Origin: Candidatus Omnitrophota bacterium
GTDB taxonomy: Bacteria; Omnitrophota; Gorgyraeia; Zapsychrales; Zapsychraceae
Length of the DNA stretch: 64,000 nt
NCBI GenBank assembly: GCA_029261055.1
Contig: JAJDCA010000003.1
Coordinates: 3,641-67,640 of the forward strand
Direction of reading: 5' to 3'
Shown: one piece after another, positions 7,132 to 25,302 of the stretch
How the letters are laid out: each line of letters opens with the position of its first letter
How positions within the stretch are numbered: position 1 is the stretch's first letter
Notes under the pieces: generated by a model
Seen by the model: the letters and a program-made list of their open reading frames with translations, nothing else
Told to the model about the DNA's origin: nothing
Database searches by the model: none
Program-made: the position numbers and the translations under genes

Positions 7132-7160
7132 GAGAATACTCCTTTGATATAATCAATTAT

Positions 7161-7775
7161 ATGATTACATGTATTATTTTATCAGCTGGTAAAAGTAGCC
7201 GTTTTGGATCACCAAAGGCTTTAGCTAAACTCAGTCAATGTACTGTTCTCGAACATTTACAGAAGCAATTGATTCATTGTGCACAGGTGACTGAAATTAT
7301 TATTGTTGTTGGAGCCAAAGCTGACCAAATCAAATCTTTTATATTAAACCATAACAAAGTCAAAGTTGTCTACAATAAAGATTATAATTTTGGGCAGACA
7401 TCTTCCTTTAAAGCTGGTTTAAAATATGCAGCACCAGATACTCAAGGTTTTATGTTGTGGCCTGTAGATTATCCGATCATAAAAAATGAAACAATTGATC
7501 AATTAATTAATGCTTTTTTAGAAAATAAATCGAGTATTCTTATCCCTTCTTTTGATGGTCAAAAAGGCCACCCTCCTATTTTTTCTGCATCATTAAAGAA
7601 TGAATTTTTACGTTTAGATAATGCCGTTGGGCTCAACATGGTGGCACGGTCTTATCCAGAATATATAAGTATTCTTCCTGTCGATGATATGGGTGTAATT
7701 ATGAGTTTTAATTCGGAAGAGGAATTCGAAAAAATAAAGGAAAGAAAATTATTGAAAGACGATGACAGCGGCTGA
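7161..7775 (+). CDS. mocA: MobA/MocA-like molybdenum cofactor nucleotidyltransferase
   Basis: ILSAGKSSRFGSPKAL...GHP matches the MobA-like NTP-transferase N-terminal motif. It lies next to the xanthine-dehydrogenase-family genes. Confidence 0.7.
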   Translation: MITCIILSAGKSSRFGSPKALAKLSQCTVLEHLQKQLIHCAQVTEIIIVVGAKADQIKSFILNHNKVKVVYNKDYNFGQTSSFKAGLKYAAPDTQGFMLWPVDYPIIKNETIDQLINAFLENKSSILIPSFDGQKGHPPIFSASLKNEFLRLDNAVGLNMVARSYPEYISILPVDDMGVIMSFNSEEEFEKIKERKLLKDDDSG

Positions 7776-8129
7776 AAAGTTTGCACGGACGTAGGCATTG
7801 CCGATTACGTTTTGAACAGGAAGGCTTTTCCAAGTTCCAGAGGCATCTGTTTTGATAGCTGTTATGGCGTCGCCACCTAGGATGGCTGATTCACGTTTCA
7901 TTTTGTCGAGAACCTCACTCATATATTGTCGTCGTTCAGCATTAATTGTAATGTAGGCAATTACTGTGTGAGGTTTTTCAATATTTTCAACATAAATTAT
8001 TTCATTAGCAGATTTTTTAGACGGATAATAATCTGTTGTGATATCTTTTGAAGTCACACGATAAACGCTGCAGGCCGACGTCAGCGTTAAGAAAATAATT
8101 AGGAAAGAAAGTTTTTTAATAGCATTCAT
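7749..8129 (-). CDS. putative lipoprotein
   Basis: Signal peptide with lipobox (LTLTSAC). I recognise no family. Confidence 0.45.
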   Translation of the reverse strand: MNAIKKLSFLIIFLTLTSACSVYRVTSKDITTDYYPSKKSANEIIYVENIEKPHTVIAYITINAERRQYMSEVLDKMKRESAILGGDAITAIKTDASGTWKSLPVQNVIGNAYVRANFSAAVIVFQ

Positions 8130-8168
8130 AATGGTTAAACCATATCAGAAATTTCTGAAAATTTCTAT

Positions 8169-11809: not shown

Positions 11810-12490
11810 TTATAATAAGTTAATCACTTCTTTTGGTAATCGTTTTAATTCTTGATTGCCTAAAACTTTAATTGACCAGCGTAGAAGTTTTAATTTTTGT
11901 TTTAATTTTGGTCCTGGCTCGGTGATATTAGCCAGGCGTTTTCGCATTAAAAAAAGGATTTTACGTAAGGTATTAAAAATAATTCTGGCTTCTCGGGGAC
12001 GATTATGGCCATTATCTATGATAGCTTCAAGGTGCGCAAAGGCAATTTCATTAATGGTCTCATTGTAATGGTCGAGTTTTTGGATGAGGGCTGGAACCAT
12101 AGCTTTGAAATAATGGTACCGATCCATATGACATAAAGTATGCATAATTTCGATTTGTACAAATGGTGAATTTGCTCTGTTAAGTCGGCGGAGCAAAATT
12201 TTGATCACTTTCTTTTTTTCTTTTGAGAAAACTTCTTGACCGAACTTATCGTTAAAGACACGCACGGCGGCAGCTCCTTTGTAAGAACTGAGTGTGGTAT
12301 CTTTAATGATGGCTAAAAGGATTTCTTTGGGAAGGTCAGTGTACTTAGCTATGTAACCTTGTAGAAGCATCTTGTCATCGAAAATTGTGTAGGATTGTGG
12401 GTCTTGTGAAAATGCTATACGGGGAGATATAAGGCATAAAAAGATTGTTAATAATAAGGTTAGTTTTATAAAGCCAGGATATTTTTTCAT
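11810..12490 (-). CDS. hypothetical secreted protein
   Basis: Signal peptide. It is translationally coupled to nadC upstream and to the FAD subunit downstream. Confidence 0.4.
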   Translation of the reverse strand: MKKYPGFIKLTLLLTIFLCLISPRIAFSQDPQSYTIFDDKMLLQGYIAKYTDLPKEILLAIIKDTTLSSYKGAAAVRVFNDKFGQEVFSKEKKKVIKILLRRLNRANSPFVQIEIMHTLCHMDRYHYFKAMVPALIQKLDHYNETINEIAFAHLEAIIDNGHNRPREARIIFNTLRKILFLMRKRLANITEPGPKLKQKLKLLRWSIKVLGNQELKRLPKEVINLL

Positions 12491-13335
12491 TGTATAACCA
12501 TGGACACATCCACCGCTTGATGGGAATGTGTTAAGGCTCCGATTGAAATGCGATCAACCCCGGTTTTGGCGGCAGCGCGAACATTTTTAAGCGTAATCCC
12601 ACCTGAGGCTTCCAATAAAGGACGTTGCCCTTTGGGTAATTTTTTTGTGAGAACAACGGCTTGTTTCATTTGATGGCTAGACATATTATCCAGCAGAATA
12701 ATATCTGGATTTGCGTTTAAAGCATCTTTAAATTGTATGAGGTCGTCCACTTCTATTTCAATATATTTTTTTGTTTTTTGTCGAAGGGTATCAATAGCTT
12801 CTTGAATAGATAATTGAGGATAACACACTTGTAGATGGTTATCTTTGATAAGAACCATTTCACTCAGGTTCGTTCTGTGGCTCTTTCCTCCTCCGCATCG
12901 AACGGCATATTTTTCCAGTTCCCGTAGGCCAGGAGTTGTTTTGCGTGTATCCATAATTTTTGTTTTGAGTGGGTGTATTTTTTTAACAAAGGTATGTGTC
13001 TGTGTTGCAACACCGGAAAGGTAACTCAGAAAGTTCAAAGCCGTCCGTTCGGTTGTGAGTAGCGCGCGTGTATTTCCTTTAATTGAAGCAATTTGAGTGT
13101 TTTTTTGTACATAATCGCCATCTTTGGCTAATGCTTGAAATTGGATGTTTTTGTCCAGTTTTTGAAAAATTTTGCGGACAATGTCAGTACCGCAAATCAT
13201 AGCGGCCTGTTGAACAAGGATATAGGCTTCGGAAGTATGATTTTTAGGGACCAAACCGTTCGTTGTAATATCCTGGTCTGTTGCATCTTCTTCCAGTGCT
13301 TGAGAAATAATAAGATCACAATTTTTTAGATTCAT
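12487..13335 (-). CDS. nadC: nicotinate-nucleotide pyrophosphorylase (quinolinate phosphoribosyltransferase)
   Basis: QPRTase signature (TRKTTPGLR, CGGG.SHR, IKDNH). Confidence 0.9.
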   Translation of the reverse strand: MNLKNCDLIISQALEEDATDQDITTNGLVPKNHTSEAYILVQQAAMICGTDIVRKIFQKLDKNIQFQALAKDGDYVQKNTQIASIKGNTRALLTTERTALNFLSYLSGVATQTHTFVKKIHPLKTKIMDTRKTTPGLRELEKYAVRCGGGKSHRTNLSEMVLIKDNHLQVCYPQLSIQEAIDTLRQKTKKYIEIEVDDLIQFKDALNANPDIILLDNMSSHQMKQAVVLTKKLPKGQRPLLEASGGITLKNVRAAAKTGVDRISIGALTHSHQAVDVSMVIQ

Positions 13336-13403
13336 AGGAAGGAGATTATATTATCGCTCGAGGGTTGTTGCAAGGGAATTTTCGTGGATATACGGTTTTA
13401 TTT

Positions 13404-14612
13404 TTATTTGGAAATTATCTGTTTATTTTCAACAGGTGGTTGATTTTTTGGAATTTGAAATCGAAATATAGATCCTCCTTTAGGATTAGGTTCGGCCCAT
13501 ATTGTTCCATGATGATCAAAGATGATATTTTTTGCTATGGAGAGGCCTAATCCTGTGCCACCAGCACCTGTTTTAGATTTGCTACTTTGGACAAAGGCAT
13601 CAAAAATAATTTCATATTCAGTTTCAGGTATTCCTATCCCCTCATCAATTATAGAAACGATAAAATATTGATTATCTTGCGCGATTTCAACAAAGATTTT
13701 CTTTTTATTTTGTGAGAATTTAATAGCATTTGATAATAAGTTTTGCATAACTTGTATAATTTTATCTATGTCAATTGCGGCTGTGTCATTGAAATTTGGT
13801 TCTGTGAATTGAATAATTATTTCTTTTTCTTTGCATAATGATTTTGATTCAGTAATAATTTTCTTTATAGCAAGTGAAAGTTGAGTTTCTTGGAATTTAT
13901 ACACTATTTTTCCTGTCTCTAGTTTTGATAAATCTAATAATTCGTTAAGCAAGTCCAGTAAGTTTTCACCGCAGAGCTTAATTTCAGAAAAATATTTTTT
14001 TAATTTCTTTTTATCTATCCATTCGATACGATCCAAACCAAACTTAGCGAAACTTAAAATGCCGTGCAATGGAGTTCGTAGTTCATGGCTTATATTAGCC
14101 AGGAATTCTGATTTGGCTTGGTTGGCTTTTTCAGCGCGGATTTTTTCTTGCATAACTTGATGTGTGCGCTTTAAAACTTCTTTTTCGAATTGACTTTTGT
14201 ACTCTAGAAGTTCTTTTTTTCGTTCGTTTTCGATTTGTTGAGTTTTTTTATTTAATTCAACATATCGAATTGCTTTTTTAATAGTGTATTCAAGGATAAT
14301 GGGATCAAAGGGTTTAATCACAAAATCCAAAGCGCCTTTTTTTAATGCTTCTATGGCTAATTGTACGGTGCCTTCTGCTGTGATCATAATACATTTAAAA
14401 TCAAGGTTTATTTTATTTATGGCCTCAAGGGTCATTAATCCATCCATCTCTGGCATTCGTTGGTCAAGCAAAATAAGATCTGGAGATAAGTCTTTGAGGA
14501 TTTGAAGCGCTTCCATTCCGCTTTCAGCTTCAGAAACTTCATATTCATCAAGAGTGTATTTTATGAGGTGGCGATTATTTTTATCATCATCGACAATGAG
14601 TATTTTTTTCAT
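13404..14612 (-). CDS. hybrid response regulator-histidine kinase (N-terminal receiver + HisKA + HATPase_c)
   Basis: MKKILIVDDD...DLILLDQRMPEMDG receiver. H-box SHELRTPLHGI. G-box GTGLGLSIAK. Confidence 0.85.
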   Translation of the reverse strand: MKKILIVDDDKNNRHLIKYTLDEYEVSEAESGMEALQILKDLSPDLILLDQRMPEMDGLMTLEAINKINLDFKCIMITAEGTVQLAIEALKKGALDFVIKPFDPIILEYTIKKAIRYVELNKKTQQIENERKKELLEYKSQFEKEVLKRTHQVMQEKIRAEKANQAKSEFLANISHELRTPLHGILSFAKFGLDRIEWIDKKKLKKYFSEIKLCGENLLDLLNELLDLSKLETGKIVYKFQETQLSLAIKKIITESKSLCKEKEIIIQFTEPNFNDTAAIDIDKIIQVMQNLLSNAIKFSQNKKKIFVEIAQDNQYFIVSIIDEGIGIPETEYEIIFDAFVQSSKSKTGAGGTGLGLSIAKNIIFDHHGTIWAEPNPKGGSIFRFQIPKNQPPVENKQIISK

Positions 14613-14663
14613 AAAGATATTTATACGCGATGTTAGAAAATAAGAAATAGGGTGGGGTTGTTT

Positions 14664-15062
14664 TTAGCTATCTTTTTTCTTCTTTGAAGAGATTATTTTT
14701 AGAAGTTTTTCAATGTTTTTTTGTAAGGGTAATAGATTTTTTTCTTTGCGGGCTATAACCGCATTAGCGCCGTTTGTTTTGAATTGTGCAATTGTGTTTT
14801 CATCTGTAAAGAGTCCAATTTGAACTATGACTTTGGTGGAAGGTCTTAAGGAGGTAATTTTTTGACAGATTATTTGACTATCAGTATCAGGAAGCATAGC
14901 GCTGAGAATAACCAAGTCAGGTTTTTCTTGTTGAATCTTTTTTATGGATTCTATACCTGATCGAATTAAAGTAATTTTTTTAAATGTTAAGCCTTTAAGA
15001 AATGCAATCAATTTGTCGGCATAAACCGGATGAGCATCAATGATTAAAATTTTATCTTGCAT
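14664..15062 (-). CDS. degenerate (pseudo-)receiver domain protein lacking the phospho-acceptor Asp
   Basis: The receiver fold is recognisable, but IIDAH replaces the DD pocket and DLVILS replaces DxxxxD. Confidence 0.55.
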   Translation of the reverse strand: MQDKILIIDAHPVYADKLIAFLKGLTFKKITLIRSGIESIKKIQQEKPDLVILSAMLPDTDSQIICQKITSLRPSTKVIVQIGLFTDENTIAQFKTNGANAVIARKEKNLLPLQKNIEKLLKIISSKKKKDS

Positions 15063-15807
15063 TAGTCCTCCTCTTTTTTTTATTTTTGAGGGTTTTTTCC
15101 TTGGCGATATGGTTTCTGTATTCCATCGGGGTCTTTTTTTCTATACGTTTAAAAATACGCATAAAAGATTCGGCATTTTGATAGCCGAGTTGTAGGGATA
15201 TTTCATTAATATTGTATGAAGAATTTTTCAATAATGATTTAGCAATATCCATTTTAATCTTCAGTTTATATTCACGGAAGGTTGACCCATGTTTATCGTT
15301 AAACATACGACTTATATACTTGGGGCTAAGGCATAATTCATTAGCAATGTCTTTCAAAGAGACTTGGGATTGATTTCTTTCAATAAATCGTTTAATACGT
15401 GTTATTTTATTATCTGAATTCACGGGTTCGTTACGAAGATATTGATTATTTTTTAAAATTGTGTGAATTTTATGTTTAAGCTCTTCAAGCTCGAAAGGTT
15501 TCTCTAGAAAATCACTAGCTTGATATCTAAGAGCTTGAACAGCAATGTCCATCGAGCCATAAGCTGTAAGCATGATCACGGCAATATTTTTATTTATTTT
15601 TTTAACTTCATGTAATGCGTTAACACCATTCATTCCCGGCATCATAACATCCATTAGAATTAAATTTATTTCATGCGGCTTTCGGAGATAATTTAAGGCA
15701 TCTTGAGCGTTAGAAAAATCAATAATTTCATATTCTGCAAGGCCGACTTTAATGCTTCGAATGACACGAGAGTCATCATCAACAACCATAATTTTTTCTG
15801 AGAGCAT
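15052..15807 (-). CDS. response regulator with AraC-type HTH output domain
   Basis: Receiver (MVVDDD...LILMDVMMPGMNG) plus an AraC HTH C-terminus. The start was moved to MLSEK to limit overlap with the upstream kinase. Confidence 0.8.
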   Translation of the reverse strand: MLSEKIMVVDDDSRVIRSIKVGLAEYEIIDFSNAQDALNYLRKPHEINLILMDVMMPGMNGVNALHEVKKINKNIAVIMLTAYGSMDIAVQALRYQASDFLEKPFELEELKHKIHTILKNNQYLRNEPVNSDNKITRIKRFIERNQSQVSLKDIANELCLSPKYISRMFNDKHGSTFREYKLKIKMDIAKSLLKNSSYNINEISLQLGYQNAESFMRIFKRIEKKTPMEYRNHIAKEKTLKNKKKRRTNAR

Positions 15808-17587
15808 AAGAAGTCTCCTTTTCAGTAGTTGGAAGTTTTGTGATAAAAGAAATTGTGTTTTTGTTTTGGCAATCCATTCTAATTGTTCCACCGTGTTGTT
15901 TGATGATTTCTTTACATATTGAAAGGCCGAGGCCTAAACCATTTTGTTTTGTAGTGAAAAAAGGTTCAAAGCATTTTTGCAAGGATTCTGGATTAATTTT
16001 CTGAACTGCATTGGTAATTTTGATTTGGATACAGTCAGTTTTTTGTGATTTTGATTTTTGAGTGGTTTTTGCAGATAAATAAATAGACTTACCTTCATCT
16101 GCTGCTTCGATGGCATTAGTTATCAGGTTAATGAGGACTTGTTTTAATTTGCTCATATTACCGTGAATCTCTGGAAGATTATCTTTTATATTTATGTCAA
16201 AATGTAATTTTTTTTGTTTAAACCGTATTTTTGTTAATGAAATAATGTCATTAATTAAAGTATTGACGTTGAGTTTTTCCATAGGAAATTGTTGAGCTTT
16301 TGTATAATCACTTATATTTTGTAACATGGTTTTCCAGGAGTTTAGTTCTTTGGGGATTACTTGGGAAAAATCAGCAATAAATGCTTTTTCTTTATGTCGT
16401 TGCGGAAGCAAATGAATGTAAGTTTTAACAAGTACGAGTGAATTCTTCAGTTCGTGAGCAATAGCTGTGGTTGCTTTTCCAACAATGGATAACCTTTCCA
16501 TTTGTCGAGCTTTACGTAATTCGTCAGCCATTTTATTAAACGTGTTGAGAAATTTTCCAATTTCATCTTTACGTTGAATCGGGAATGTTTGGTTAAATTG
16601 TCCACGGGCTAATCGTTGGGTGCGTTCAATCACTTGATTCATGGGGCGGCTTATAAGGCGTGCTAACATAAGACTCAATATAATAGCAGCGAGGATACTT
16701 AAAAGAATAATGATCCATGATTGAGCCTGCATGATTTTGGAAAAGGCATAAGCTTCTTTAAGTGGTTGAAATATAACTAAACCCCAATTTATTTTTGGAA
16801 TTGGGGCGTAAGCAACCAACCAACGTTTTTTATGGTTATCTTTCATTTCACGACTTCCGGATAATCCACGAGAAAGTTCATCTGTGATGGCTGGATAAGG
16901 AGGTTTTGTATTTGTAAGGATTAGTTTTTTATCAGGATGGGCAATGAGTTGTCCCTTGTGGCCAATTAAATATACGCCGCAAGATTTACCGCAGTTAATA
17001 TTGTCAACAACATCCCACACTCTACGTAAGTTAACATCGGCGATAAGAACTCCCTTAATTTTTCCAAGATTTTTTATTGGTACGCCCAAAGTCATTAGTG
17101 GCGTACGATTTTTTGAAATCCGAACATCGGAAACGTAAATTTTTCCTTGGATTGTGTCTAAAAATTCAGGGTCCTCACTGCGATCTGTCAGAGGTGTACC
17201 TAGCTCGGAGGAGCAGATTTCGTGTCCATTTTGATCAACGGAGGCAATGCGGCCAAAGATAGGATATTTTAACGCAAGTTCTACAATGGTTGTTTCTTGT
17301 CGCCAAGGATCTGCGTGTAATGTTCCAAGAATAGCGGCTATTGTTTCCAATGCTTTACGAGGCGATTCAATAAATTCTTTTAATTCTCCTGTGGCGTGAA
17401 TGGCTATTTCTTTATGATCATTTAATATAGATGTTTTTAATGCTTTTTGACTTGTTTGAATAAGGATAAAACCTAAGGTAATTAAGGGGATAATTACAAG
17501 AAGTAGCAACAGAACAAAAATTTGTTGCCAAATACGTTTGGGGGTAATTTTTTGATGAAAAGATTGAATAAAATATGAAAATGACAT
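15779..17587 (-). CDS. membrane sensor histidine kinase with periplasmic Cache-type domain, HAMP, HisKA and HATPase_c
   Basis: Two TM helices flank a ~250-aa extracytoplasmic domain. H-box AHELKNSL. G-box GLGLGLSICK. Confidence 0.85.
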   Translation of the reverse strand: MSFSYFIQSFHQKITPKRIWQQIFVLLLLLVIIPLITLGFILIQTSQKALKTSILNDHKEIAIHATGELKEFIESPRKALETIAAILGTLHADPWRQETTIVELALKYPIFGRIASVDQNGHEICSSELGTPLTDRSEDPEFLDTIQGKIYVSDVRISKNRTPLMTLGVPIKNLGKIKGVLIADVNLRRVWDVVDNINCGKSCGVYLIGHKGQLIAHPDKKLILTNTKPPYPAITDELSRGLSGSREMKDNHKKRWLVAYAPIPKINWGLVIFQPLKEAYAFSKIMQAQSWIIILLSILAAIILSLMLARLISRPMNQVIERTQRLARGQFNQTFPIQRKDEIGKFLNTFNKMADELRKARQMERLSIVGKATTAIAHELKNSLVLVKTYIHLLPQRHKEKAFIADFSQVIPKELNSWKTMLQNISDYTKAQQFPMEKLNVNTLINDIISLTKIRFKQKKLHFDINIKDNLPEIHGNMSKLKQVLINLITNAIEAADEGKSIYLSAKTTQKSKSQKTDCIQIKITNAVQKINPESLQKCFEPFFTTKQNGLGLGLSICKEIIKQHGGTIRMDCQNKNTISFITKLPTTEKETSYALRKNYGC

Positions 17588-17598
17588 GTAACATTATA

Positions 17599-18948
17599 TC
17601 AAATTTTTGAAGCTATTAAAGTTTGATATTCTTTCTTAATAAATTCAGGTACCATTTTATCAAGATATGGCTTTTTACACCCAGCGGTTTGGAAATTTTT
17701 TTCTTCCAAAAAAGACATCATGCGGCATCCACCGCTACACATTGGGAGATAAGTGCAATCTTGCGGGCATTGTTTCCAGACGTCAAGGTTTATAAATTCA
17801 TGATGTTTTTTATTGAAGTGTTCATCTTGGATGTTGCCAACCGCAAATTCCGGATGCCCTAGCATGGAATTACATTTGTAAATGTGTCCTTTTTGATCAA
17901 TCGTTACCCCCCCCTGTTCACTTGTTAATGGGCAGGCGGTGATGGACATACCATTTTTTGTCGGAAGACCGCGGCTTTCCATAAGGTTTTGGATTTTTTT
18001 ATTATCTTTTAGGAGTTGTTTATTTTCAAAATTACAGTTACAGGCTGTATTTTGAATTTGTTCTGCCTGGCCAACAGGTCCAAGGGTGGCATGAAGTGGT
18101 GAAAATATAAAACGGCCTAATTTGTGTAGAATTTCTATTTCTTCAAAATAATTAAGTAGTCGTTCGATCGGAGCGATATTCCCTTTAGTATAACTGGTAG
18201 AAATACCGATTTTAACCATATCACTACAATTGGTGATATTTTGAATGATTTTATCAAAGCTGCCTCGGCCATTACGTAAAGGGCGGTTACGATCATGATC
18301 TTGGCCAACACCATCTACGGAAATACGTACCTGGTCCAGTCCTAATGTAAGATAATGGGCAATACACTCTGGAGTCATCAAATAACCATTAGTTTGCAAC
18401 ATAAATTTGAATCGTATGCCTTGTTTTTTGCACCAGATTTGCATTTCACTGGCAATTTGTTCAAGAATAAATTTATTTAACAGAGGTTCCCCCCCGTAAA
18501 AAATTAGATAGAGTTGTTTATAATTAAATTTCTTAATTTGTTTTTTTAGCCATGTCATGACATGGTCTGCCGTTTTGGCATCCATTTTAACATTTGCGCG
18601 AGATGTTTCTTCAAAGCAGTAAGTACATTTTAGATTGCAGGCATAGGTTGTGAGGATCGTTACGGCAAAAGAGTCTGTTTTTGATTCATGTTTTAGTTGA
18701 TTTAAAAAAAACTTTAGGTTCTGATGGTCTTCTTTTTCATTTTTTACAATCATCCCCATTTTGTGTAAGGCTGTGAGATCTTTGGAATGGCGTTCGCGTA
18801 ATGTAGGTAAAATTTTTTCAGAATTTTCGATAATTTTACGTAATTCGTGATTAATTTTGACCATCCCTTGTGTACGAATATTATAAATAAGATGATCTTG
18901 ATCGGTTGGATAATTATCGATAATAAGTGTGTTGTTAGAAAATTGCAT
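17599..18948 (-). CDS. radical SAM / SPASM-domain peptide-modifying enzyme with ~100-aa N-terminal extension (possible RRE)
   Basis: CNLKCTYC (CxxxCxxC) occurs at ~aa 104. The C-terminal Cys-rich SPASM region is CPQDCTYLPMCSGGCR. Confidence 0.9.
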   Translation of the reverse strand: MQFSNNTLIIDNYPTDQDHLIYNIRTQGMVKINHELRKIIENSEKILPTLRERHSKDLTALHKMGMIVKNEKEDHQNLKFFLNQLKHESKTDSFAVTILTTYACNLKCTYCFEETSRANVKMDAKTADHVMTWLKKQIKKFNYKQLYLIFYGGEPLLNKFILEQIASEMQIWCKKQGIRFKFMLQTNGYLMTPECIAHYLTLGLDQVRISVDGVGQDHDRNRPLRNGRGSFDKIIQNITNCSDMVKIGISTSYTKGNIAPIERLLNYFEEIEILHKLGRFIFSPLHATLGPVGQAEQIQNTACNCNFENKQLLKDNKKIQNLMESRGLPTKNGMSITACPLTSEQGGVTIDQKGHIYKCNSMLGHPEFAVGNIQDEHFNKKHHEFINLDVWKQCPQDCTYLPMCSGGCRMMSFLEEKNFQTAGCKKPYLDKMVPEFIKKEYQTLIASKI

Positions 18949-19046
18949 AAATTATGACTCAATATGGTTGCTAATTTTATGATGGTAAGTGGTGAATGCT
19001 ATGATAGCAATTACCACTTACCATCGTATAATGTATTTATAACGTT

Positions 19047-19154
19047 TTATTCAACCTCTTCAGGGGTTTGCATTGTTTCTGTCCCTGGTGGCCAACAACA
19101 ACTTAGCGCGGACATTTCTTTGAGGTCAACTGCCCCTTTTTTGATAATTTCCAT
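19047..19154 (-). CDS. 35-aa candidate RiPP precursor peptide MEIIKKGAVDLKEMSALSCCWPPGTETMQTPEEVE (not in supplied ORF track)
   Basis: A perfect ribosome-binding site AAGGAGGTG sits 6 nt before the ATG. The ORF lies 30 bp downstream of the binding-protein gene and 98 bp upstream of the rSAM/SPASM gene on the same strand. Confidence 0.5.
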   Translation of the reverse strand: MEIIKKGAVDLKEMSALSCCWPPGTETMQTPEEVE

Positions 19155-19184
19155 TAATATCACCTCCTTAATGTGTTATGAGTT

Positions 19185-20783
19185 TTATTTATGGAGAATT
19201 TGCCAGTTTTTTAATGAATGTACGGGCATGGACCAACAAAAGAAATCATCTGTATTTTTTAATTTCGCGGATACCGCATGAAAAGTTTGTGGAAAGAAAA
19301 AGAAGCAAGCTGGTTGATCCAAATAGAGTAATTTATGGATTTCTTGGTAAATCTTTGAGCGTTCATTTTTATTTTGGATTATCCTGCCAGATTCAAAAAG
19401 CATATCAATTTTGTTATTTTTATAAGGCCATAATTGTCCAAATTGGCTAGATGAGGAATACCAACTACCTAATGCATCATAAGCATCATGACCTAAACCT
19501 TCAAAAAAACGTAACCATGCTTGTGGTTTATGTGTGGTTAAAAAATTTTTGGTTAAATCCGAGTTATTTTTATAGGGAATGATTTGTACTTTCATTCCAA
19601 TTTCAGCTAATTGTTGACGAATAATAATGGCCGCTTTTTTGTAAAAATCATTACGGATATCTACGAGGAGGCGGAGTTCCAGCTTTTTTCTTCCTTTTTC
19701 AAAGACGCCATCTCCGTCTATATCTTTCCATCCTAAATGCATAAGGTTCATGCGTGCTCGTAAGGGATTGTAAGGCAGTGATCGGACATCAGAATTAAAC
19801 CCCATCGACTTGGGATGAAATGGCCCGGTGCTTTCTAGTCCTTCAACGGAAGTTGCTTGCATGAGTTGTTTTCGGTCTATGCTCATAGCAATCGCGTTAC
19901 GAATATCAGGGTTAAAGAAGGTAGAATCTTGGGTATTGTAGACCATGGCAAAATACATTTCCCAAGGAATGGTATAAGTCTTGAATGTTGGATCTTTGGC
20001 AACAATTTTATAATCTTCATGATTGAGATATAAGACAAGATCAACTTCTTGCTGCATTAAAGCGATCCAGAGTTTTTTGGCATTAGGATATGTTTTTATA
20101 ATAATCTGGTCTAAATAAGGGCGATTTTCAAAATATTTTTGATTGGCTTCAAGGGTTATTTGATTTGTTTTTTTATCCCATTTTTTAAATTTGAATGGGC
20201 CTGTCCCAATGGGAAAGTAGTTGAAGGATGCTGTGGGCAGTGCTTTATCACTCAGGAGATGTTTAGGAGCAATTTCTCTGGTGAGCTTATGCAAAATAGC
20301 CGGAAACGCCTTTTTGAGTTTTATTTTTACTGTGTAATTATCAATGATTTTCCATTGTTCGATCAATTCTGTATTGGTACGTCGAGGTGATTGGTTTTTT
20401 GAATCGGCAATCATGTCATAAGTAAATTTTATATCTTTTGTCGTTAATTCTACACCATCGTGAAATTTGACACCTTCATGCAAATAAAAAATATAAACCA
20501 ATCCGTCTTCGGAGATGTCCCAGGATTTGGCTAACCCAGGTACGACTTTTCCCTGGCTATTAATACGGACAAGAGAATCAAAGATGAGGGCCATTAACGG
20601 TGCTGAAACGCTATGTGAGGTCAGTATGGGATTAATAATGGTCGGAGGATTACTTGTTCCCCACACTAAGGTACCTCCATATTTTTTTTGTCTGATTTGG
20701 GCTAAGTCTGCTAATGCCGTGGAAGGATATGGGGCTAACATATTTGTCATAAAGATAAAGGTGATAAAAATTTTTAAAAACAT
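19185..20783 (-). CDS. ABC-type periplasmic substrate-binding protein, family 5 (oligopeptide/dipeptide/nickel type)
   Basis: SBP_bac_5 signature (KYGGTLVWG...NPIL...LV...GLAKSWDIS.DG..Y.F.L..GVKFHDG) with a signal peptide. No permease or ATPase genes are adjacent. Confidence 0.85.
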   Translation of the reverse strand: MFLKIFITFIFMTNMLAPYPSTALADLAQIRQKKYGGTLVWGTSNPPTIINPILTSHSVSAPLMALIFDSLVRINSQGKVVPGLAKSWDISEDGLVYIFYLHEGVKFHDGVELTTKDIKFTYDMIADSKNQSPRRTNTELIEQWKIIDNYTVKIKLKKAFPAILHKLTREIAPKHLLSDKALPTASFNYFPIGTGPFKFKKWDKKTNQITLEANQKYFENRPYLDQIIIKTYPNAKKLWIALMQQEVDLVLYLNHEDYKIVAKDPTFKTYTIPWEMYFAMVYNTQDSTFFNPDIRNAIAMSIDRKQLMQATSVEGLESTGPFHPKSMGFNSDVRSLPYNPLRARMNLMHLGWKDIDGDGVFEKGRKKLELRLLVDIRNDFYKKAAIIIRQQLAEIGMKVQIIPYKNNSDLTKNFLTTHKPQAWLRFFEGLGHDAYDALGSWYSSSSQFGQLWPYKNNKIDMLFESGRIIQNKNERSKIYQEIHKLLYLDQPACFFFFPQTFHAVSAKLKNTDDFFCWSMPVHSLKNWQILHK

Positions 20784-20882
20784 TGTGAGGTCTTGGCATT
20801 GACCTGAGTGATCAATACCATACATTACGAAGGGAATAAGAAAATAGGTTTATGTGTGTTTTAGCTGACTTTTTTCTACTTT

Positions 20883-22754
20883 TTAAAATTTAAGCGAAAA
20901 TCCCCCTTCAAAATAACGCTCTGGTAGAGGAAATGTTTTGTCAGACCAATATTTACTGTTGGTAATATTGTGGATGTTAACAAAGATTTCACCTTTGATA
21001 TTTTTGTAACGAGGTTGGTAATTCTGGGTTAATTTGGCATCAAAAATTGGTTTACGGTCATTGGGTTCATCGCTGGCATCAGAATCCCAACGATCGTAGT
21101 AACCATAGAGATTAAGTCCAAAGCCTTTTTTATTTTTGTAGTTTGCTCCCCATCGAAAGCTTTGCCGAGCTGTGCCGTTGCCTCTTACGACTTCATCTGT
21201 GGCTTTGTCCACCACATGATTAAATGCACTGCTGGTAAAAAAATGCCACTCTTCAGAGAGGGTATAATCTAAGGTTAAATCTACGCTTTGACGACGAAAT
21301 TTATCAAAGTTTTGACTTTGAAATAAAGAATCTTCATTGAATACAATTTTAATAGCATCTCTTATTTGGGCCAATGAATAATTTAGGTTAAGGTTTAATG
21401 CTGATAACGGGTTTGTCTCCAGGCCAATTTCATACACCATAGCTTTTTCAGCCTTTAACTCTGGATTCGGAGCGACCAAAAAAGATGGATCGTCATTAAA
21501 TAACCATAATAAAGGTGGGGCTTGGAAGGCTCGGGTAGCCTTGAAGCGAATCGAGGTCTCTCTCTCATCTTTAAACTGATAAATGGCGCCAAGGCTTGGG
21601 CTTGTTTGATCTCCAAAACGGTTGTTATTATCATAACGAATGCCTGGAATAATATCTAAATTACCTAAATTTAGTGTATAATTAGCAAATGGGGCTTCCA
21701 TGTGAATATGTTTTGGTTGAGGAATATTACGGCTAGATTTGATTTTTTGCCATTCAAAATCACTACCGACAACAAGTTTGTCTTTTTCTCGAAAAGTAAA
21801 GCGGGCTACGCCACTTAACCCATTGTAGATGTTTGAGTTGTTTGTAAGGAGCCCCCCAACAGTCTCTGTTTTTATATTTTGATTGTTATATTTTCCGGAG
21901 ATATTAAGTTGAAACTTAGGTTTATCAATTTCAAAAGACATTTTTCCGTATCGGGAATAATAAGGTTGTAGTGTGGTTGATCCTGAGGGTTTGACCCCAT
22001 CACGGACTTCAGCTCCACTATATCCGAAAGAAGCCGTTAGTTTGGCTTGGTCTCCAACAGGATAATTGAGTTTGGAAAAATATTTTTGCTCTTCTACATC
22101 GGAAATAGATCGAGTGCCAGAAGTATTCATAAAACTTCCTGAAACAAAATAACCAGCCTTACCTATTCGTCCTGCGAGATCAAGGCTATTTTTGGTTGTG
22201 CCAAATTCAGCAAACGATGAGGTGAAGTTGCCGGTGGGGATAGTATTTTCCCCTACCTCTTTTGTGATTACGTTGATGACCCCCCCTAGACTGGATCCCC
22301 AGGCACTTGAAGAAGCTCCTTTTATAACTTCAATTTGTTTGATGTTCTCTATTGGGATTTTTGTGGGGTTAGCCTGGCCTGAGAGTTGGGTGTTAAATGG
22401 GATTCCATCGACCATCACCAAGACTTGCCGTGATCGAGATCCTTGGATTGTGAGAGATGTGCTTTGACCAAATTTATTACGTACAGCAATATTGACTCCT
22501 GGAATAAGGCTTAAGACTTCCCCTAAATCGCGTCCAGGTAATTTTTCAATATCTTTTTCAGTATAAATAATGACATTTTCTGCAGCACGGTCTGCCTCAC
22601 TTTGTATACGTGTGGCGCTCACGATAATGGGCGATGTCTCTGCAGAGTGTGCGTAAGTCGAAGTAAAAATTAAGAAAGTAGATATACAGATGGTAGGCAA
22701 TAAATGAGAAAAATTAAATTTTATGTAATAGTTTTGGGGATGTTTGGGGAACAT
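20883..22754 (-). CDS. TonB-dependent outer-membrane receptor
   Basis: Signal peptide, plug domain (IVSATR...ENVIIYT..DIEKLPGRDLGEVL), a 22-strand barrel region and the C-terminal aromatic ...GGFSLKF. Confidence 0.85.
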   Translation of the reverse strand: MFPKHPQNYYIKFNFSHLLPTICISTFLIFTSTYAHSAETSPIIVSATRIQSEADRAAENVIIYTEKDIEKLPGRDLGEVLSLIPGVNIAVRNKFGQSTSLTIQGSRSRQVLVMVDGIPFNTQLSGQANPTKIPIENIKQIEVIKGASSSAWGSSLGGVINVITKEVGENTIPTGNFTSSFAEFGTTKNSLDLAGRIGKAGYFVSGSFMNTSGTRSISDVEEQKYFSKLNYPVGDQAKLTASFGYSGAEVRDGVKPSGSTTLQPYYSRYGKMSFEIDKPKFQLNISGKYNNQNIKTETVGGLLTNNSNIYNGLSGVARFTFREKDKLVVGSDFEWQKIKSSRNIPQPKHIHMEAPFANYTLNLGNLDIIPGIRYDNNNRFGDQTSPSLGAIYQFKDERETSIRFKATRAFQAPPLLWLFNDDPSFLVAPNPELKAEKAMVYEIGLETNPLSALNLNLNYSLAQIRDAIKIVFNEDSLFQSQNFDKFRRQSVDLTLDYTLSEEWHFFTSSAFNHVVDKATDEVVRGNGTARQSFRWGANYKNKKGFGLNLYGYYDRWDSDASDEPNDRKPIFDAKLTQNYQPRYKNIKGEIFVNIHNITNSKYWSDKTFPLPERYFEGGFSLKF

Positions 22755-22814
22755 TACGATCGGTACTATATCGTACTTTTTTTGATAGATCAAGGATAAT
22801 ACATAGGTTGTGTA

Positions 22815-22854
22815 TAAAAAAGGGGCCTTGATTGTTGAAAAATTTTAGGCCCCT
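22815..22854 (-). terminator. rho-independent terminator (minus strand) AGGGGCC-loop-GGCCCCT + T6
   Basis: GC stem followed by a T-run on the minus strand, downstream of the 75-aa gene. Confidence 0.5.
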
Positions 22855-22871
22855 CCCGTGGCGGGTAATTT

Positions 22872-23099
22872 TTATAACATATCTTCAATTAATGTTATTT
22901 CGGTTTTAATGGTGGGTTTTTGTCCATGGGGAATATAAGCTTTTACCTCAGCTTTTGATTTAAAAATTTCCAAAGCTTCTTTTCTTCGATTTTCTTTTAA
23001 TAAAGCAATGACTTTTTCTTTGAGACTTTTTTTGTTTAATGTCGCGATAACTCTTAAACTTTGATAATTTTCATTATTTAATACGAGTAATGCGTTCAT
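22872..23099 (-). CDS. hypothetical 75-aa protein
   Basis: An ORF with a terminator downstream. I recognise no family. Confidence 0.35.
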   Translation of the reverse strand: MNALLVLNNENYQSLRVIATLNKKSLKEKVIALLKENRRKEALEIFKSKAEVKAYIPHGQKPTIKTEITLIEDML

Positions 23100-23468
23100 T
23101 TTTAGTTTCTCCTTTGTAATATGGCGTGAAGAATAGTATCTTCAGGTATTTTGCTTCTTGCTGCGCGCATGTAATTTTTAGTTAATTAAAGCATAACATA
23201 TGGTGTGTCATAAATCAAGTGTATCTAAGTTATTTTGACATATTTTGTATTACTTATAACATTATGTAATTAAATAGTTTATGATAATTATGAAAGTAAA
23301 TAGTTATTATATTTTAAAATAATGTCATAATTATATGATTATATCATTGTTATGACATATTATGACGGTGTTATCAACTACAGAGATAATACTTAAAAAT
23401 GTAAGGACTCCTCTAAAAAATTATATTTTCTATATGTCAAAATATTAGTTTTTTTTTGTTTTTATGGC

Positions 23469-23503
23469 TTGACATGTATTCTTAGCTAGTATATAAATTA
23501 ATT
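23469..23503 (+). promoter_or_regulatory. sigma70-like promoter TTGACA-N17-TATAAA for the XRE/cupin regulator
   Basis: Consensus -35 and near-consensus -10 sit about 40 bp upstream of the 23542 start. Confidence 0.4.
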
Positions 23504-23541
23504 CTCTATATGTAATATATTAATTAAATGAGGAGAATTCC

Positions 23542-24111
23542 GTGAATCATTATGAAAAAATAAAAAAAATTCGTAAAGAGCAAAAAATGACGATAAAAGA
23601 GGTTTATCAGCGTGGTAAGTCTATTTGGGGGCAACAAAATGCACTCTCGATTAGTACGATTAATCGAATTGAAGCGGGTAAACGGCATAAATTTTCTTCT
23701 TTACACAAGCTTTGTTTTATTTTAGGTGTTGAGCTTAAGGAATTATTTAAAGATACTGAAGTTTCAGAATATTTAGTCATACCCAGAAAAGAAAGAACAT
23801 TAGGATACTCTTATAATGAAAAAGCTTTTTCTAATATTGTGAATAATCCGAATCAGAGTTTTTTGGCTCAAGAATTTACTTTAGCGCCTTCCGGTAGGAC
23901 ATCTTCTGATAATGCGACTTTAGCTGGAGAGAAATCTGAAAAATGGGTTTATGTTGTTAGAGGTGAGCTAGTGTGTGTTATTGAAGCAGAGAAGTTTTTA
24001 TTAAAAGGCCGGGATACTTTGTCATTTGATAGCACTAAGGTTCATTATTTCAAAAATGCGTCTAATAAAAAATGTATCTTTATTGTTGTTGAGAATCCGG
24101 GGCGTTATTGA
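23542..24111 (+). CDS. XRE-family HTH + cupin domain transcriptional regulator
   Basis: N-terminal HTH_3 (IKKIRKEQKMTIKEV...STINRIEAG). C-terminal cupin beta-barrel. Confidence 0.75.
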   Translation: MNHYEKIKKIRKEQKMTIKEVYQRGKSIWGQQNALSISTINRIEAGKRHKFSSLHKLCFILGVELKELFKDTEVSEYLVIPRKERTLGYSYNEKAFSNIVNNPNQSFLAQEFTLAPSGRTSSDNATLAGEKSEKWVYVVRGELVCVIEAEKFLLKGRDTLSFDSTKVHYFKNASNKKCIFIVVENPGRY

Positions 24112-24122
24112 GGTTTAAAAAA

Positions 24123-24494
24123 TCATTGTTCAGAAATTTCTTTGATTTTTTGTGTAGCCACGATGCGTAGATCATCAAAACTAAACGGTTTTGTCATGTA
24201 GTCATCAGCCCCTAATGCCGTCGCTTTCTGGCGCATCGCTTCATCCCCTTTGGCTGTTACCATAATCACCATAACTTTAGGATCAAGTTCTTTAAACTCT
24301 TTCAGAAGGTCCAAACCATCAACATCAGGCATAAGAATATCCAGAAAAATTATTTTTGGTTTTTCTTTTTTGAATACACTCAACGCCTTTTTCCCTGTCG
24401 TTGCCGTAAATACAGTAAAACCTATATACGAAAATGTTTGACTAATACTTTCACATACCCCGGCTTCATCATCTACAGCTAAAATTTTTATCAT
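24123..24494 (-). CDS. single-domain response regulator (CheY-like receiver)
   Basis: MIKILAVDDE...IIFLDILMPDVDG...TAKG...KPF. Confidence 0.85.
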   Translation of the reverse strand: MIKILAVDDEAGVCESISQTFSYIGFTVFTATTGKKALSVFKKEKPKIIFLDILMPDVDGLDLLKEFKELDPKVMVIMVTAKGDEAMRQKATALGADDYMTKPFSFDDLRIVATQKIKEISEQ

Positions 24495-24865
24495 GATTGT
24501 TCCTTTCGATTACCAGTACCCCGTGTAATAAGTTTGGTATTGACTTCTTTAGCAGAAAAAGTTTCTTTTAAGGCCTCAATCGCGCGTTCGGGGTACATTT
24601 GACCGCAGGTGAGAATGTCAAAGGCGGCGAATCCGTCTTCCGGCCAGGTGTGGATGGCAAAATGGGATTCGGCAATGAGGATGATGCCTGTAACACCAAT
24701 GGGGTCAAACTGATAGAAATAATGTTCTAGAATGGTGGCTTCACTTTTGACAGCTGCTTCTAAAAAGGCTTCTTTGACATCAGCAGCAAATTTAAGTCGT
24801 TCTTTGTCACAGTCAATGAAATCGACCAGATAATGTTTTCCGTGGTTTTTTTGTGGTTGGGTCAT
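24491..24865 (-). CDS. speH: S-adenosylmethionine decarboxylase proenzyme (SpeH-type)
   Basis: GKH...D...AESHFAIHTWPE matches the pyruvoyl-dependent AdoMetDC signature. Confidence 0.85.
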   Translation of the reverse strand: MTQPQKNHGKHYLVDFIDCDKERLKFAADVKEAFLEAAVKSEATILEHYFYQFDPIGVTGIILIAESHFAIHTWPEDGFAAFDILTCGQMYPERAIEALKETFSAKEVNTKLITRGTGNRKEQS

Positions 24866-24867
24866 GG

Positions 24868-25302
24868 TTAGACTTCCTTAACACTAAAGCCGATTTCCGC
24901 TTCAGCAACTTTTTTGTCTTTTACATAAGCCTGGATTTTGAGGAATCCTGCCTTGCTCATGAGTTTTAGGGTTGTTACGTCTATTTTTAGCTGGTCACCG
25001 GGAACCACGGGGGCAAAGAATTTGCTGGATACTTTGGCTAAATAATAAACTAAGTCTTTCCCTTGCATGTTTTTGCTGTAATAAAAATAAATACAACCGG
25101 CCTGGGCCATCGCTTCCACTATTAAAACACCAGGCATAATTTTCTCATTTGGAAAATGTCCTGTAAAAAAAGGTTCATTTACAGAAACATTTTTGATGGC
25201 CGTAAGTTTTTCATTAGGTTGTAAATCAATAACCCTATCAATGAGTAAAAATGGATAACGATGAGGAATAATTTTCTGGATTTCTTGAATATCTAATTGC
25301 AT
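24868..25302 (-). CDS. fabZ: 3-hydroxyacyl-ACP dehydratase
   Basis: IPHRYPFLLIDRV...FFTGHFP..IMPGVLIVEAMAQ hotdog motif. Confidence 0.9.
   Translation of the reverse strand: MQLDIQEIQKIIPHRYPFLLIDRVIDLQPNEKLTAIKNVSVNEPFFTGHFPNEKIMPGVLIVEAMAQAGCIYFYYSKNMQGKDLVYYLAKVSSKFFAPVVPGDQLKIDVTTLKLMSKAGFLKIQAYVKDKKVAEAEIGFSVKEV

Follow-up and report, generated by a model that had tools for sequence, protein, structure and literature searches.

A probable RiPP precursor gene beside a radical-SAM/SPASM maturase gene in a conserved receptor and two-component unit of Omnitrophota

The small gene and the unit around it

The window (the whole 64-kb stretch of Omnitrophota DNA analysed) contains on its minus strand a 35-codon open reading frame (ORF), at 19047..19154, which encodes the 35-aa peptide MEIIKKGAVDLKEMSALSCCWPPGTETMQTPEEVE and closes with a TAA stop ending at 19047. 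Its ATG (19154-19152) is preceded, at a distance of 6 nt (ATATTA), by the Shine-Dalgarno sequence AAGGAGGTG at 19161..19169 on the same strand. The arrangement AAGGAGGTG-N6-ATG matches once on the two strands of the 64-kb window, against 0.01 matches expected from 100 shuffles. Downstream, an intergenic gap of exactly 98 nt separates the peptide ORF from the start (18948) of a gene encoding a 449-aa radical-SAM (rSAM)/SPASM peptide maturase (17599..18948, minus strand). The original prediction, which began from this ribosome-binding site, this ORF and its position upstream of the rSAM/SPASM gene, is confirmed from the sequence on all three. It had also called the ORF unannotated, which holds for the first ORF track, where it is absent, but not for public data, where the exact protein is already present, nameless, in a protein collection (P0251; sources NCBI and Logan).

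The pair lies within a gene unit whose order is TonB-dependent receptor, OppA/AppA-like binding protein, peptide, rSAM enzyme, ABC exporter (in some loci), dCache histidine kinase and AraC-type response regulator. The first gene (20883..22793, minus strand) codes for an outer-membrane receptor of the TonB-dependent type, with plug and barrel; in 15 loci, the window and L156 among them, it is the direct upstream neighbour of the binding-protein gene. The binding protein (19185..20825, minus strand) is a periplasmic family-5 solute-binding protein of the OppA/AppA/NikA type (SBP_bac_5, 234 bits) with an N-terminal signal-like segment, and its nearest solved structure is that of the Bacillus subtilis oligopeptide binder AppA (1xoc, E 9e-55). 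Its stop codon falls 30 nt before the peptide start, and in nearly all loci its gene is immediately upstream of the peptide. The unit contains no ABC permease or ATPase partner for it.

Downstream of the rSAM gene lies the gene for a sensor histidine kinase (15779..17587, minus strand) made up of a transmembrane segment, a periplasmic dCache_1 domain, a second transmembrane segment, and HAMP, HisKA and HATPase domains. In at least 17 loci the kinase gene follows the rSAM gene, with or without an ABC-exporter gene between them. The kinase gene is conservedly followed by the gene for an AraC-type response regulator with Response_reg, HTH_18 and HTH_AraC domains (15052..15891, minus strand); as the listed GTG start would make the regulator overlap the kinase gene, its true start is probably an internal ATG. 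Next comes a stand-alone receiver-domain protein identified with Pfam (14664..15062, minus strand), which also follows the AraC-type regulator in five other loci (L086, L095, L092, L091 and L101). The hybrid REC-HisKA-HATPase kinase encoded beyond it (13404..14612, minus strand) might be a further part of the signalling unit, though with less certainty; similar kinases are found past the unit in L086, L083, L101 and L156.

A 580-aa ABC exporter is encoded between the rSAM and kinase genes in about nine loci, and no homologue of it is present anywhere in the 64-kb window. Nor does the unit encode a leader protease, the sole protease-like gene noticed being an Rce1-like one 31 kb away, outside the conserved unit. 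In three loci (L113, L115 and L116) the order is receptor, rSAM enzyme, peptide, binding protein and kinase, with the peptide gene thus downstream of the rSAM gene, and the unit persists despite the reordering. The strongly conserved receptor, binding protein and two-component system around the pair, which the original prediction had passed over, are more unusual than the pair itself.

Conservation of the peptide and its intergenic hairpin

A homologous small ORF on the same strand adjoins the rSAM gene in 25 of the 29 loci (orthologous or paralogous) that have enough flanking DNA. The loci belong to MAGs of Omnitrophota, Spirochaetota, Auribacterota and Ignavibacteriales. At the other four loci no peptide ORF is present in the available DNA: one is distant (L100), and three are close (L082, L083 and L085), the 4-16 kb available around these close rSAM orthologues showing no trace of a peptide. 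The pairing of peptide and rSAM enzyme is therefore not obligatory in cis.

The peptides share the consensus M-E-I-I-x-x-G-T-D-D…CC[WFY]P[PA]G[TS], in which residues 1-18, with the MEIIxxG motif, form a putative leader and the core begins at the invariant C19-C20. Among 16 close sequences compared over 26 codons, pairwise differences at codon positions 1, 2 and 3 are 0.30, 0.21 and 0.55, respectively. Synonymous change predominates in the same set (pS 0.74 against pN 0.25), and CCWPPG is retained despite synonymous codon changes. An AAGGAGG or GGGGGTG site lies 5-9 nt upstream of the peptide start in all 23 aligned loci. A peptide profile searched against 27,131 small ORFs in 156 loci matched ORFs of the peptide family only, with E-values from 1e-20 to 1e-6 (1e-3 for the truncated L007 copy) and the next match at E >0.1. 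The 35-codon ORF is thus a real gene under purifying selection at the protein level. The original prediction had proposed retention of the small ORF alongside the rSAM gene as its test, and both the count of loci and the selection on the peptide bear it out. That the ORF is open by chance, in a spacer between genes, might be suspected from its shortness and from the many ORFs of like length in the window, but the in-frame conservation across phyla, the synonymous pattern, the conserved Shine-Dalgarno site and the specific profile refute that reading, to which we attach a negligible probability.

The family extends well beyond these loci. In a public collection of 5.8 billion proteins, 68 non-redundant family peptides were found, all nameless, which fall into 51 clusters at 50% identity; for 20 of the 68, the longest contig is equal in size to that of rSAM matches. 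More than 650 related maturases are present in public data. The CC pair is invariant in the wider family while the rest of the core is not conserved there; a Thr or Ser at +5 from a Cys is found in the close clade only, and the close-clade peptides have an acidic C-terminal tail. Our literature search returned no paper on the peptide family, and for radical SAM enzymes or RiPPs in Omnitrophota it returned generic surveys of biosynthetic gene clusters.

The 98-nt gap between the two genes holds a stem-loop (18981..19025, minus strand) with a 13-bp outer and a 5-bp inner stem, which starts 21 nt past the peptide stop. Its folding energy is -31 kcal/mol (z = -6.4), and none of 200 shuffles folds equally well. 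A GC hairpin occupies the corresponding position in nearly every locus, with z mostly between -2 and -8 and without conservation of sequence. The window stem-loop has no clear U-tract; U-runs follow the hairpin in some loci (L093 and L005). On our reading the stem-loop sets the precursor apart from the enzyme gene, either by terminating transcription in part or by stabilising the 3' end of the mRNA. The rSAM gene has no good Shine-Dalgarno sequence. From the strong ribosome-binding site of the peptide, the hairpin past its stop and the poor site of the enzyme, we propose that the arrangement yields much precursor and little enzyme. Scans for promoter and terminator consensus sequences gave matches at chance level.

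The hairpin also bears on a quite different explanation, in which the ORF is an attenuation leader peptide whose tandem Cys codons, together with a terminator hairpin, make transcription of the rSAM gene depend on how much Cys-tRNA is available. Such a device would account for the adjacent Cys codon pair as the sole invariant feature across the wide family and for a strong hairpin past the ORF in nearly all loci. Purifying selection acts on the whole peptide, however, beyond the Cys codons; the hairpin stands 21 nt clear of the stop with no evident antiterminator pairing that overlaps the ORF; the peptide gene is downstream of the rSAM gene in the L113/L115/L116 clade; and the enzyme carries a domain with a leader-binding fold. 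We therefore reject an attenuation leader as very improbable. A riboswitch had also been considered, on account of the resemblance of the receptor to BtuB, and was discarded: no Rfam family is present in 12000-25000, where the sole Rfam match is the hairpin itself, through a chance likeness to a miRNA precursor (E 0.12).

The maturase and the proposed modification

The maturase matches Pfam Radical_SAM (PF04055) with 70 bits, the match beginning at residue 99. The CX3CX2C cysteines (C104, C108 and C111; codons within 18616..18639, minus strand) are invariant in 26 of 26 homologues. The original prediction had credited the enzyme with an N-terminal extension of about 100 aa, and the position of this motif at residues 104-111, with the Pfam match starting at 99, establishes that the extension is real. 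The SPASM region (17677..18042, minus strand) contains a full set of eight cysteines, C303, C339(X14)G(X4)C359, C394-X3-C398-X5-C404-X3-C408 and C424, each conserved in 25-26 of the 26 homologues. Tested against the SPASM motif CX9-15GX4C … CX2-3CX5CX3C … C, the maturase conforms, and by this pattern its SPASM cysteines would ligate two auxiliary [4Fe-4S] clusters.

An AlphaFold2 model of the maturase (pLDDT 90.4) is most similar in Foldseek to CteB (E 2e-21; the alignment spans about 460 columns and takes in the N-terminal domain), which is also the best solved structure by sequence (5wgg, E 7.6e-20). Further structural matches are anSME, TigE, SuiB and ChlB, with PqqE far weaker (E 6e-8). 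Its top NCBIfam matches, namely those to geopeptide, CefB, TIGR04463, PapB, SCIFF and QhpD families, are all to maturases acting on Cys-rich substrates.

The N-terminal domain (about residues 1-90; 18679..18948, minus strand) is predicted to fold into three strands followed by three helices. Modelled in isolation (pLDDT 90.2), its best match in the PDB is TbiB1 with bound leader (probability 0.98-1.0, TM 0.56-0.61), and other matches are the N-terminus of CteB, SuiB and McbB, with weak Foldseek E-values (0.012). Pfam PqqD does not match the domain. As far as predicted fold goes, this supports the suggestion in the original prediction that the extension could be a RiPP recognition element (RRE).

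The nearest curated family for both peptide and enzyme is the uncharacterised geopeptide pair TIGR04229/TIGR04280, in which, as in the window, a short peptide gene adjoins an rSAM/SPASM gene. The maturase aligns with TIGR04280 over residues 1-441 (model positions 1-425 of 428) and scores 269.1 bits against a cutoff of 400, and ten further enzymes of the superfamily score 232-334 bits, all under the cutoff. The peptide matches TIGR04229 with 12.7 bits (E 0.085; cutoff 30). Among 36 family peptides, 17 match TIGR04229 weakly (best E 9.3e-5) and match no other NCBIfam model, while ten peptides of a distant clade have no match to it. Because both models are matched below cutoff, the window peptide and maturase are, by model scores, a distant sister family of the geopeptide pair. 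The view that the core falls outside known precursor families thus holds at curated thresholds, with the qualification that the geopeptide pair is a near neighbour below them. The geopeptide system is itself defined computationally, TIGR04280 having the status 'hypoth_equivalog', and our literature search found no experimental paper on it. A genome scan, dominated by generic rSAM patterns, gave 80 loci, of which only 11 were close relatives. A protein search with the L010 enzyme retrieved only nameless or Omnitrophota proteins and no Geobacter member.

Co-conservation, selection and the class of the maturase all support the central proposal of the original prediction, that the peptide is a candidate RiPP precursor for the adjacent rSAM enzyme. 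We regard it as highly probable that the ORF is a translated RiPP precursor gene in a conserved unit that may make its own signal, with a leader bound by the maturase RRE and a core modified at Cys-Cys. The leader, of about 18 residues (M-E-I-I-x-x-G-T-D-D…), would be bound by the RRE-fold domain of the adjacent enzyme, which would then modify the core at the Cys-Cys pair by SAM-derived radical chemistry with the help of its two auxiliary Fe-S clusters. To judge from CteB, PapB, the SCIFF maturase and QhpD, the enzymes nearest to it, the modification would most likely consist of one or two intramolecular thioether cross-links. One such link could, for example, join Cys20 to the Thr/Ser25 five residues downstream. 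In sactipeptides a thioether runs from a Cys sulfur to the C-alpha of the acceptor, in ranthipeptides to its C-beta or C-gamma.

A short peptide and an rSAM/SPASM enzyme could also yield a redox cofactor comparable to PQQ or mycofactocin, which would be scavenged from outside the cell by way of the receptor. PqqE and MftC are rSAM/SPASM enzymes acting on short precursors (PMC10114670), a TonB-dependent importer of PQQ exists, and PqqU is among the matches of the receptor (75.9 bits; 9c4o). PQQ and mycofactocin pathways depend on several more enzymes (peptidase, oxidase, glycosyltransferase), however, none of which is encoded in the unit; the structural match to PqqE is far inferior to that to CteB; and no conserved candidate for a cofactor-dependent dehydrogenase lies nearby. 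We consider a cofactor precursor improbable.

The role of the product and comparison with known systems

The genes that flank the pair suggest what might become of the product. The mature peptide would be exported; the receptor would then bring it back through the outer membrane, the binding protein would take hold of it in the periplasm and the kinase would sense it. Export, re-uptake and a signalling role are what we infer, the last from the gene neighbourhood alone, into which a metallophore would fit as well. We tentatively propose an autoinducer circuit for a double-membrane cell, in which the cross-linked peptide might be secreted, taken up again by the TonB-dependent receptor and captured by the orphan OppA-like protein, with the dCache kinase, alone or with the binder, passing the signal to the AraC-type regulator; this full circuit is a possibility of less than even weight. 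Chen et al. (2020), as cited in PMC13635244, offer a precedent for ranthipeptides in quorum sensing.

The main rival to a signal is a RiPP metallophore or chalkophore, an analogue of methanobactin, in which the two Cys residues, whether free or modified, would chelate a metal, the receptor and the OppA-like protein would recover the loaded peptide and the two-component system would tune production to metal status. The architecture parallels that of methanobactin operons (PMC7558416). The best NCBIfam matches of the binding protein include the nickel binder NikA (168 bits) and the staphylopine-metal binder CntA (147 bits), metal chelates are classical cargo of TonB-dependent receptors, and both the invariance of CC and the acidic C-terminal tail of the close clade would suit a metal ligand. 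Against this, the unit lacks MbnB/MbnC-type enzymes, Fur or ECF-sigma regulation and an inner-membrane importer, the solved structure closest to the binding protein is that of an ordinary oligopeptide binder, and a dCache kinase with an AraC-type regulator would be unusual for metal uptake. Thioether formation, as in the relatives of the maturase, would moreover cost the peptide its best metal ligands. We judge a metallophore unlikely, though a serious contender.

The data define a sizeable, nameless and unstudied family of putative RiPP precursors with the motif M-E-I-I-x-x-G…CC[WFY]P[PA]G[TS]. They also offer a definite candidate substrate for an enzyme clade that is otherwise represented only by a 'hypothetical equivalog' model. 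The conserved coupling of this family to a receptor, a peptide binder and a two-component system suggests that its products function as signals or metallophores. Were they signals, peptide quorum sensing would be extended to diderm bacteria by a new route, as undescribed cell-cell or cell-host signalling that is widespread in the possibly host-dependent Omnitrophota, of which we know no cultured representatives, and present also in Spirochaetota and Auribacterota. Were they metallophores, the system would be a radical-SAM counterpart of methanobactin.

Among characterised enzymes, CteB resembles the window maturase in its domain order (RRE, rSAM core and SPASM domain with two auxiliary clusters) and in its Cys-containing substrate, whereas sequence identity between the two is only about 18%. 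CteB joins Cys32 to Thr37, five residues apart, and C20 and T25 of the window peptide have the same spacing. CteB/SCIFF and PapB are thioether-forming rSAM/SPASM enzymes with an N-terminal RRE. Against the curated ranthipeptide families, the maturase scores 142.1 bits for PapB (NF047865; cutoff 340) and 103.2 bits for the SCIFF maturase (TIGR03974; cutoff 425). The window precursor has two adjacent cysteines, unlike the six cysteines or CX3D repeats of the CteB/PapB type, and the system is found in Gram-negative hosts in a gene context unlike that of CteB or PapB.

Methanobactin operons encode the precursor MbnA, the TonB-dependent receptor MbnT and a lone OppA/AppA-related protein, MbnE, without a known inner-membrane importer (PMC7558416). 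They thus resemble the present unit in that a short Cys-bearing precursor has as its neighbours a TonB-dependent receptor of its own and a lone family-5 binder without a permease. The modifying enzyme differs, being rSAM/SPASM here and MbnBC in methanobactin operons; neither the eight genes of the unit (searched with Pfam and NCBIfam) nor the called genes of L156 gave an MbnB or MbnC family match. Regulation differs too, with a dCache kinase and an AraC-type regulator in the unit and a sigma/anti-sigma pair in methanobactin operons.

As a possible signalling locus, the unit, which encodes precursor, modifying enzyme, exporter (in many of its loci), kinase and regulator together, is comparable to the agr, com and streptococcal rSAM-RiPP loci. 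To our knowledge, known peptide quorum-sensing systems do without a TonB-dependent receptor or a periplasmic binding protein. The hosts of the unit are diderm, and a signal would there need a TonB-dependent receptor and a periplasmic binder. The polysaccharide utilisation loci of Bacteroidetes use hybrid two-component sensors with AraC-type output, and by analogy with them the ligand of the present unit would enter through its TonB-dependent receptor and be sensed in the periplasm.

A conserved small gene linked to the radical-SAM gene

On the minus strand, the Shine-Dalgarno sequence AAGGAGGTG (19169-19161) is followed by ATATTA and an ATG (19154-19152), opening a 35-codon ORF that encodes MEIIKKGAVDLKEMSALSCCWPPGTETMQTPEEVE and closes with a TAA ending at 19047. 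The gene for the 449-aa radical-SAM/SPASM enzyme (rSAM; 17599-18948, minus strand) starts at 18948 on the same strand, 98 nt downstream. The window contains a single instance of the composite SD-N6-ATG pattern, where 0.01 would be expected. The ORF as originally described (SD, N6-ATG, 35 codons, 98 bp to rSAM) is exact on minus-strand reading. Its description as unannotated holds for the reader's ORF track only, as an identical 35-aa protein, P0251, is already present in public protein collections with no name attached.

Loci carrying rSAM relatives were gathered from GTDB species genomes and, with the family-specific SPASM region serving as query, from metagenomes; one 3.36-Mb contig was added. 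Loci were counted (n = 29) where the rSAM scored at least 250 bits against the window enzyme, or equivalent, and flanking DNA was sufficient. A same-strand ORF of 27-42 aa lies between the upstream gene and rSAM in 25 of these, bearing out, with four exceptions, the expectation that the peptide is retained where rSAM is retained. For three exceptions, the close rSAM orthologues L082, L083 and L085, the 4-16 kb of locus DNA covered contains nothing resembling the peptide in any frame; in the fourth, L100, the sole candidate is a questionable CC peptide lying 1.1 kb downstream. L082, L083 (rSAM 7008-8348) and L085 (rSAM 1720-3087), which are among the closest orthologues, also lack the binding-protein gene in the locus DNA examined. 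The receptor gene directly abuts rSAM in L085, while L083 has an aroA-like gene upstream and retains the exporter, kinase and regulator downstream.

Close-clade peptides share the consensus M-E-I-I-x-x-G-T-D-D-x-x-x-M-A-x-L-S-C-C-[WFY]-P-P-G-[TS]-E…, and those of the more distant clades, found in Spirochaetota, Auribacterota and further Omnitrophota, follow M-K-L-x-V-I-x-K-G…C-C…; the two cysteines are the sole invariant columns across the wide alignment. The 156 loci contain 27,131 small ORFs, both strands counted, and from this full set a profile built on 23 peptides retrieved family ORFs only (E 1e-20 to 1e-6) and a truncated copy in L007 (1e-3), the first match outside the family appearing at E >0.1. 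Across 26 ungapped codons of 16 close sequences, mean pairwise differences at codon positions 1, 2 and 3 are 0.30, 0.21 and 0.55, and pS is 0.74 (saturated) against a pN of 0.25. Alternative frames of the same alignment contain 21 and 35 stop codons, and CCWPPG is preserved despite TGT/TGC, CCA/CCG/CCC/CCT and GGG/GGA/GGT codon swaps. Every copy whose upstream sequence was examined has an AAGGAGG-type SD 5-9 nt before its start. Among 5.8 billion proteins, the profile retrieved 68 short family members, all unnamed or 'hypothetical'; for 20 of them the longest contig is equal in length to that of an rSAM match, and we read these as shared contigs. When 1.84 billion cluster representatives were searched exhaustively with HMMER, 51 family clusters emerged. 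The peptide ORF is therefore a real, conserved small gene linked to rSAM. One public 41-aa member, P0240, has a tandemly duplicated N-terminal heptad (MEVINQE-MEVINQG…), hinting that the heptad is a discrete recognition unit.

A stem-loop with 13-bp and 5-bp stems (19025-18981, minus strand; -31 kcal/mol, z = -6.4) starts 21 nt past the peptide stop. Nearly every locus has a GC-rich hairpin at this position, dissimilar in sequence between loci and in some followed by U-runs, and no good SD was found upstream of the rSAM gene. Lantibiotic operons, among other RiPP operons, are described as making surplus precursor mRNA by means of a weak terminator behind the structural gene; the hairpin after the peptide and the poor SD on rSAM follow this pattern. 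These signals favour expression of the precursor. A 105-aa plus-strand ORF (18964-19281), antisense across the hairpin and peptide gene, is almost certainly spurious and could hide the peptide gene from ORF tracks with a minimum length.

The maturase and its family placement

The maturase carries the radical-SAM motif CNLKCTYC (residues 104-111) and matches Pfam Radical_SAM and Fer4_12. Its cysteines C303, C339-X14-G-X4-C359, C394-X3-C398-X5-C404-X3-C408 and C424, each kept in 25-26 of 26 homologues, fit a full SPASM domain. By sequence, CteB (5wgg, E 7.6e-20) is the solved structure that comes closest, with anSME second. An AlphaFold2 model (pLDDT 90.4) likewise finds CteB as best structural match (~460 columns, E 2e-21), then anSME, TigE, SuiB and ChlB.

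Residues 1-90 are predicted to form three strands and then three helices. Modelled alone (pLDDT 90.2), this domain best matches the lasso-peptide RiPP recognition element (RRE) TbiB1 with bound leader (probability 0.98-1.0, TM 0.56-0.61); its other best PDB matches are the CteB N-terminus, SuiB and McbB. A domain of only 95 residues can be expected to give weak structural E-values, as it does here, and the Pfam PqqD model does not match it. For these two reasons the RRE originally suggested in the N-terminal extension is supported at the level of the modelled fold but not proven.

The top NCBIfam match, end to end, is TIGR04280, 'geopeptide radical SAM maturase' (269 bits against a cutoff of 400), which also ranks first for all ten further related enzymes tested. 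CefB, TIGR04463, PapB, Clo7bot, FlmE/OhkG, nif11 maturase, DynA, CcpM, SCIFF maturase and QhpD follow, all far under cutoff; almost all matched maturase families act on Cys-rich peptides. Among 36 family peptides, 17 weakly match TIGR04229 and no other NCBIfam model. Of the curated families, the geopeptide pair TIGR04229/TIGR04280 lies closest to both partners. The claim that the peptide belongs to no known precursor family stands in that neither peptide nor maturase reaches the curated geopeptide cutoff, but is tempered by those 17 weak matches. The geopeptide maturase model is itself a 'hypoth_equivalog', a computational prediction only, and a literature search found no paper on the family.

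A conserved receptor, binder and two-component unit

The peptide/rSAM pair sits within a conserved unit, its order derived by comparing locus neighbours with the window's proteins: TonB-dependent receptor (20883-22793 in the window), family-5 solute-binding protein (19185-20825), peptide, rSAM, in some loci an exporter, dCache-HAMP histidine kinase (15779-17587), REC-AraC regulator (15052-15891) and receiver protein (14664-15062), all on the minus strand. About nine loci place the exporter, a fused TMD-NBD ABC protein of ~580 aa with no C39 peptidase domain, between the rSAM and kinase genes (L084 1862-3604, L095 8414-10150, L091, L092, L083, L097, L003, L004 and L010); rSAM is directly followed by the kinase in the window, L086, L094, L101, L098, L006 and L156, and no exporter homologue occurs in the window's unit or elsewhere in the 64 kb. 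In a distant clade the order is receptor, rSAM, peptide, binding protein, kinase, the peptide (MKIIRKGTRKDDRKTTFCAWAVIH and relatives; L116 5800-5874, L113 2957-3031, L115 8629-8703) following rSAM rather than preceding it. These 24-aa peptides share the MKII+KG start with the family and have one Cys in a C-x-W motif. That the same parts remain together under altered gene order argues that they are functionally coupled rather than merely syntenic.

Among solved structures, the binding protein is closest to AppA, an oligopeptide binder (E 9e-55), and its top NCBIfam matches are NikA, Opp4A and CntA; the receptor is generic by its matches. Neither a permease nor an ATPase that could partner the binding protein is encoded in the unit, and a leader protease is likewise absent. 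A gene for an Rce1-like (CPBP) intramembrane protease, of a kind sometimes tied to bacteriocin maturation or immunity, lies outside the unit, 31 kb from the peptide (50282-51586, minus strand).

Between the receptor gene and a divergent gene for a cupin/XRE-type regulator (23542-24111, plus strand) lies a ~750-nt gap (22794-23541) that presumably houses the unit's promoter and regulator sites, though none was identified there; no Rfam family, riboswitches included, matches the gap or the rest of 12000-25000. The listed GTG start of the AraC-type regulator overlaps the kinase gene end by 113 nt (15779-15891, minus strand), and translation probably begins at the internal ATG that precedes MVVDDD. 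Elsewhere on the minus strand, the only Pfam match in a 1742-aa ORF (44041-49269) is to phosphoglycerate kinase (345 bits), confined to residues 880-1305; at a threshold as loose as E 1, the ~880 N-terminal and ~440 C-terminal residues still match nothing. This protein would be an unusual giant PGK fusion or else a multi-domain protein that has gone unrecognised. A 3379-aa ORF with PKD domains (53226-63365) encodes a giant surface-type protein, most of its length without a Pfam match at E 1e-5.

Proposed function and comparison with known systems

We propose that the leader (approximately residues 1-18) docks on the RRE-fold domain of the maturase, which would then modify the CC motif. A thioether link, as made by the nearest relatives of the enzyme, is the most likely modification, and we give it roughly an even chance. 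Close-clade peptides have a Thr/Ser five residues past C20, which parallels the Cys32-Thr37 spacing of CteA. The modified product would be exported and, with somewhat less than an even chance, would return via the receptor, be captured by the binding protein and act as the ligand that the dCache kinase senses. The main alternative is that the product is a metallophore: receptor plus lone OppA-like binder is the layout of methanobactin operons (PMC7558416), and the invariant Cys-Cys is plausible as a metal site. Much less likely are the readings of the ORF as a cofactor precursor, as an attenuation leader or as a chance frame.

The original reading of a RiPP precursor beside its rSAM enzyme is a real finding, its interpretation supported by co-conservation and by an RRE-fold, peptide-maturase-type enzyme. 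We class the family as putative rSAM/SPASM-modified Cys-containing RiPPs, a large unnamed sister family of the geopeptides centred on Omnitrophota. Genome mining yields many new rSAM-RiPP families; the conserved unit, an unusual uptake-and-sensing context, lifts this one above a routine precursor family. In its working the enzyme resembles CteB and PapB, whereas by membership it lies outside SCIFF, PapB and every other curated maturase family.
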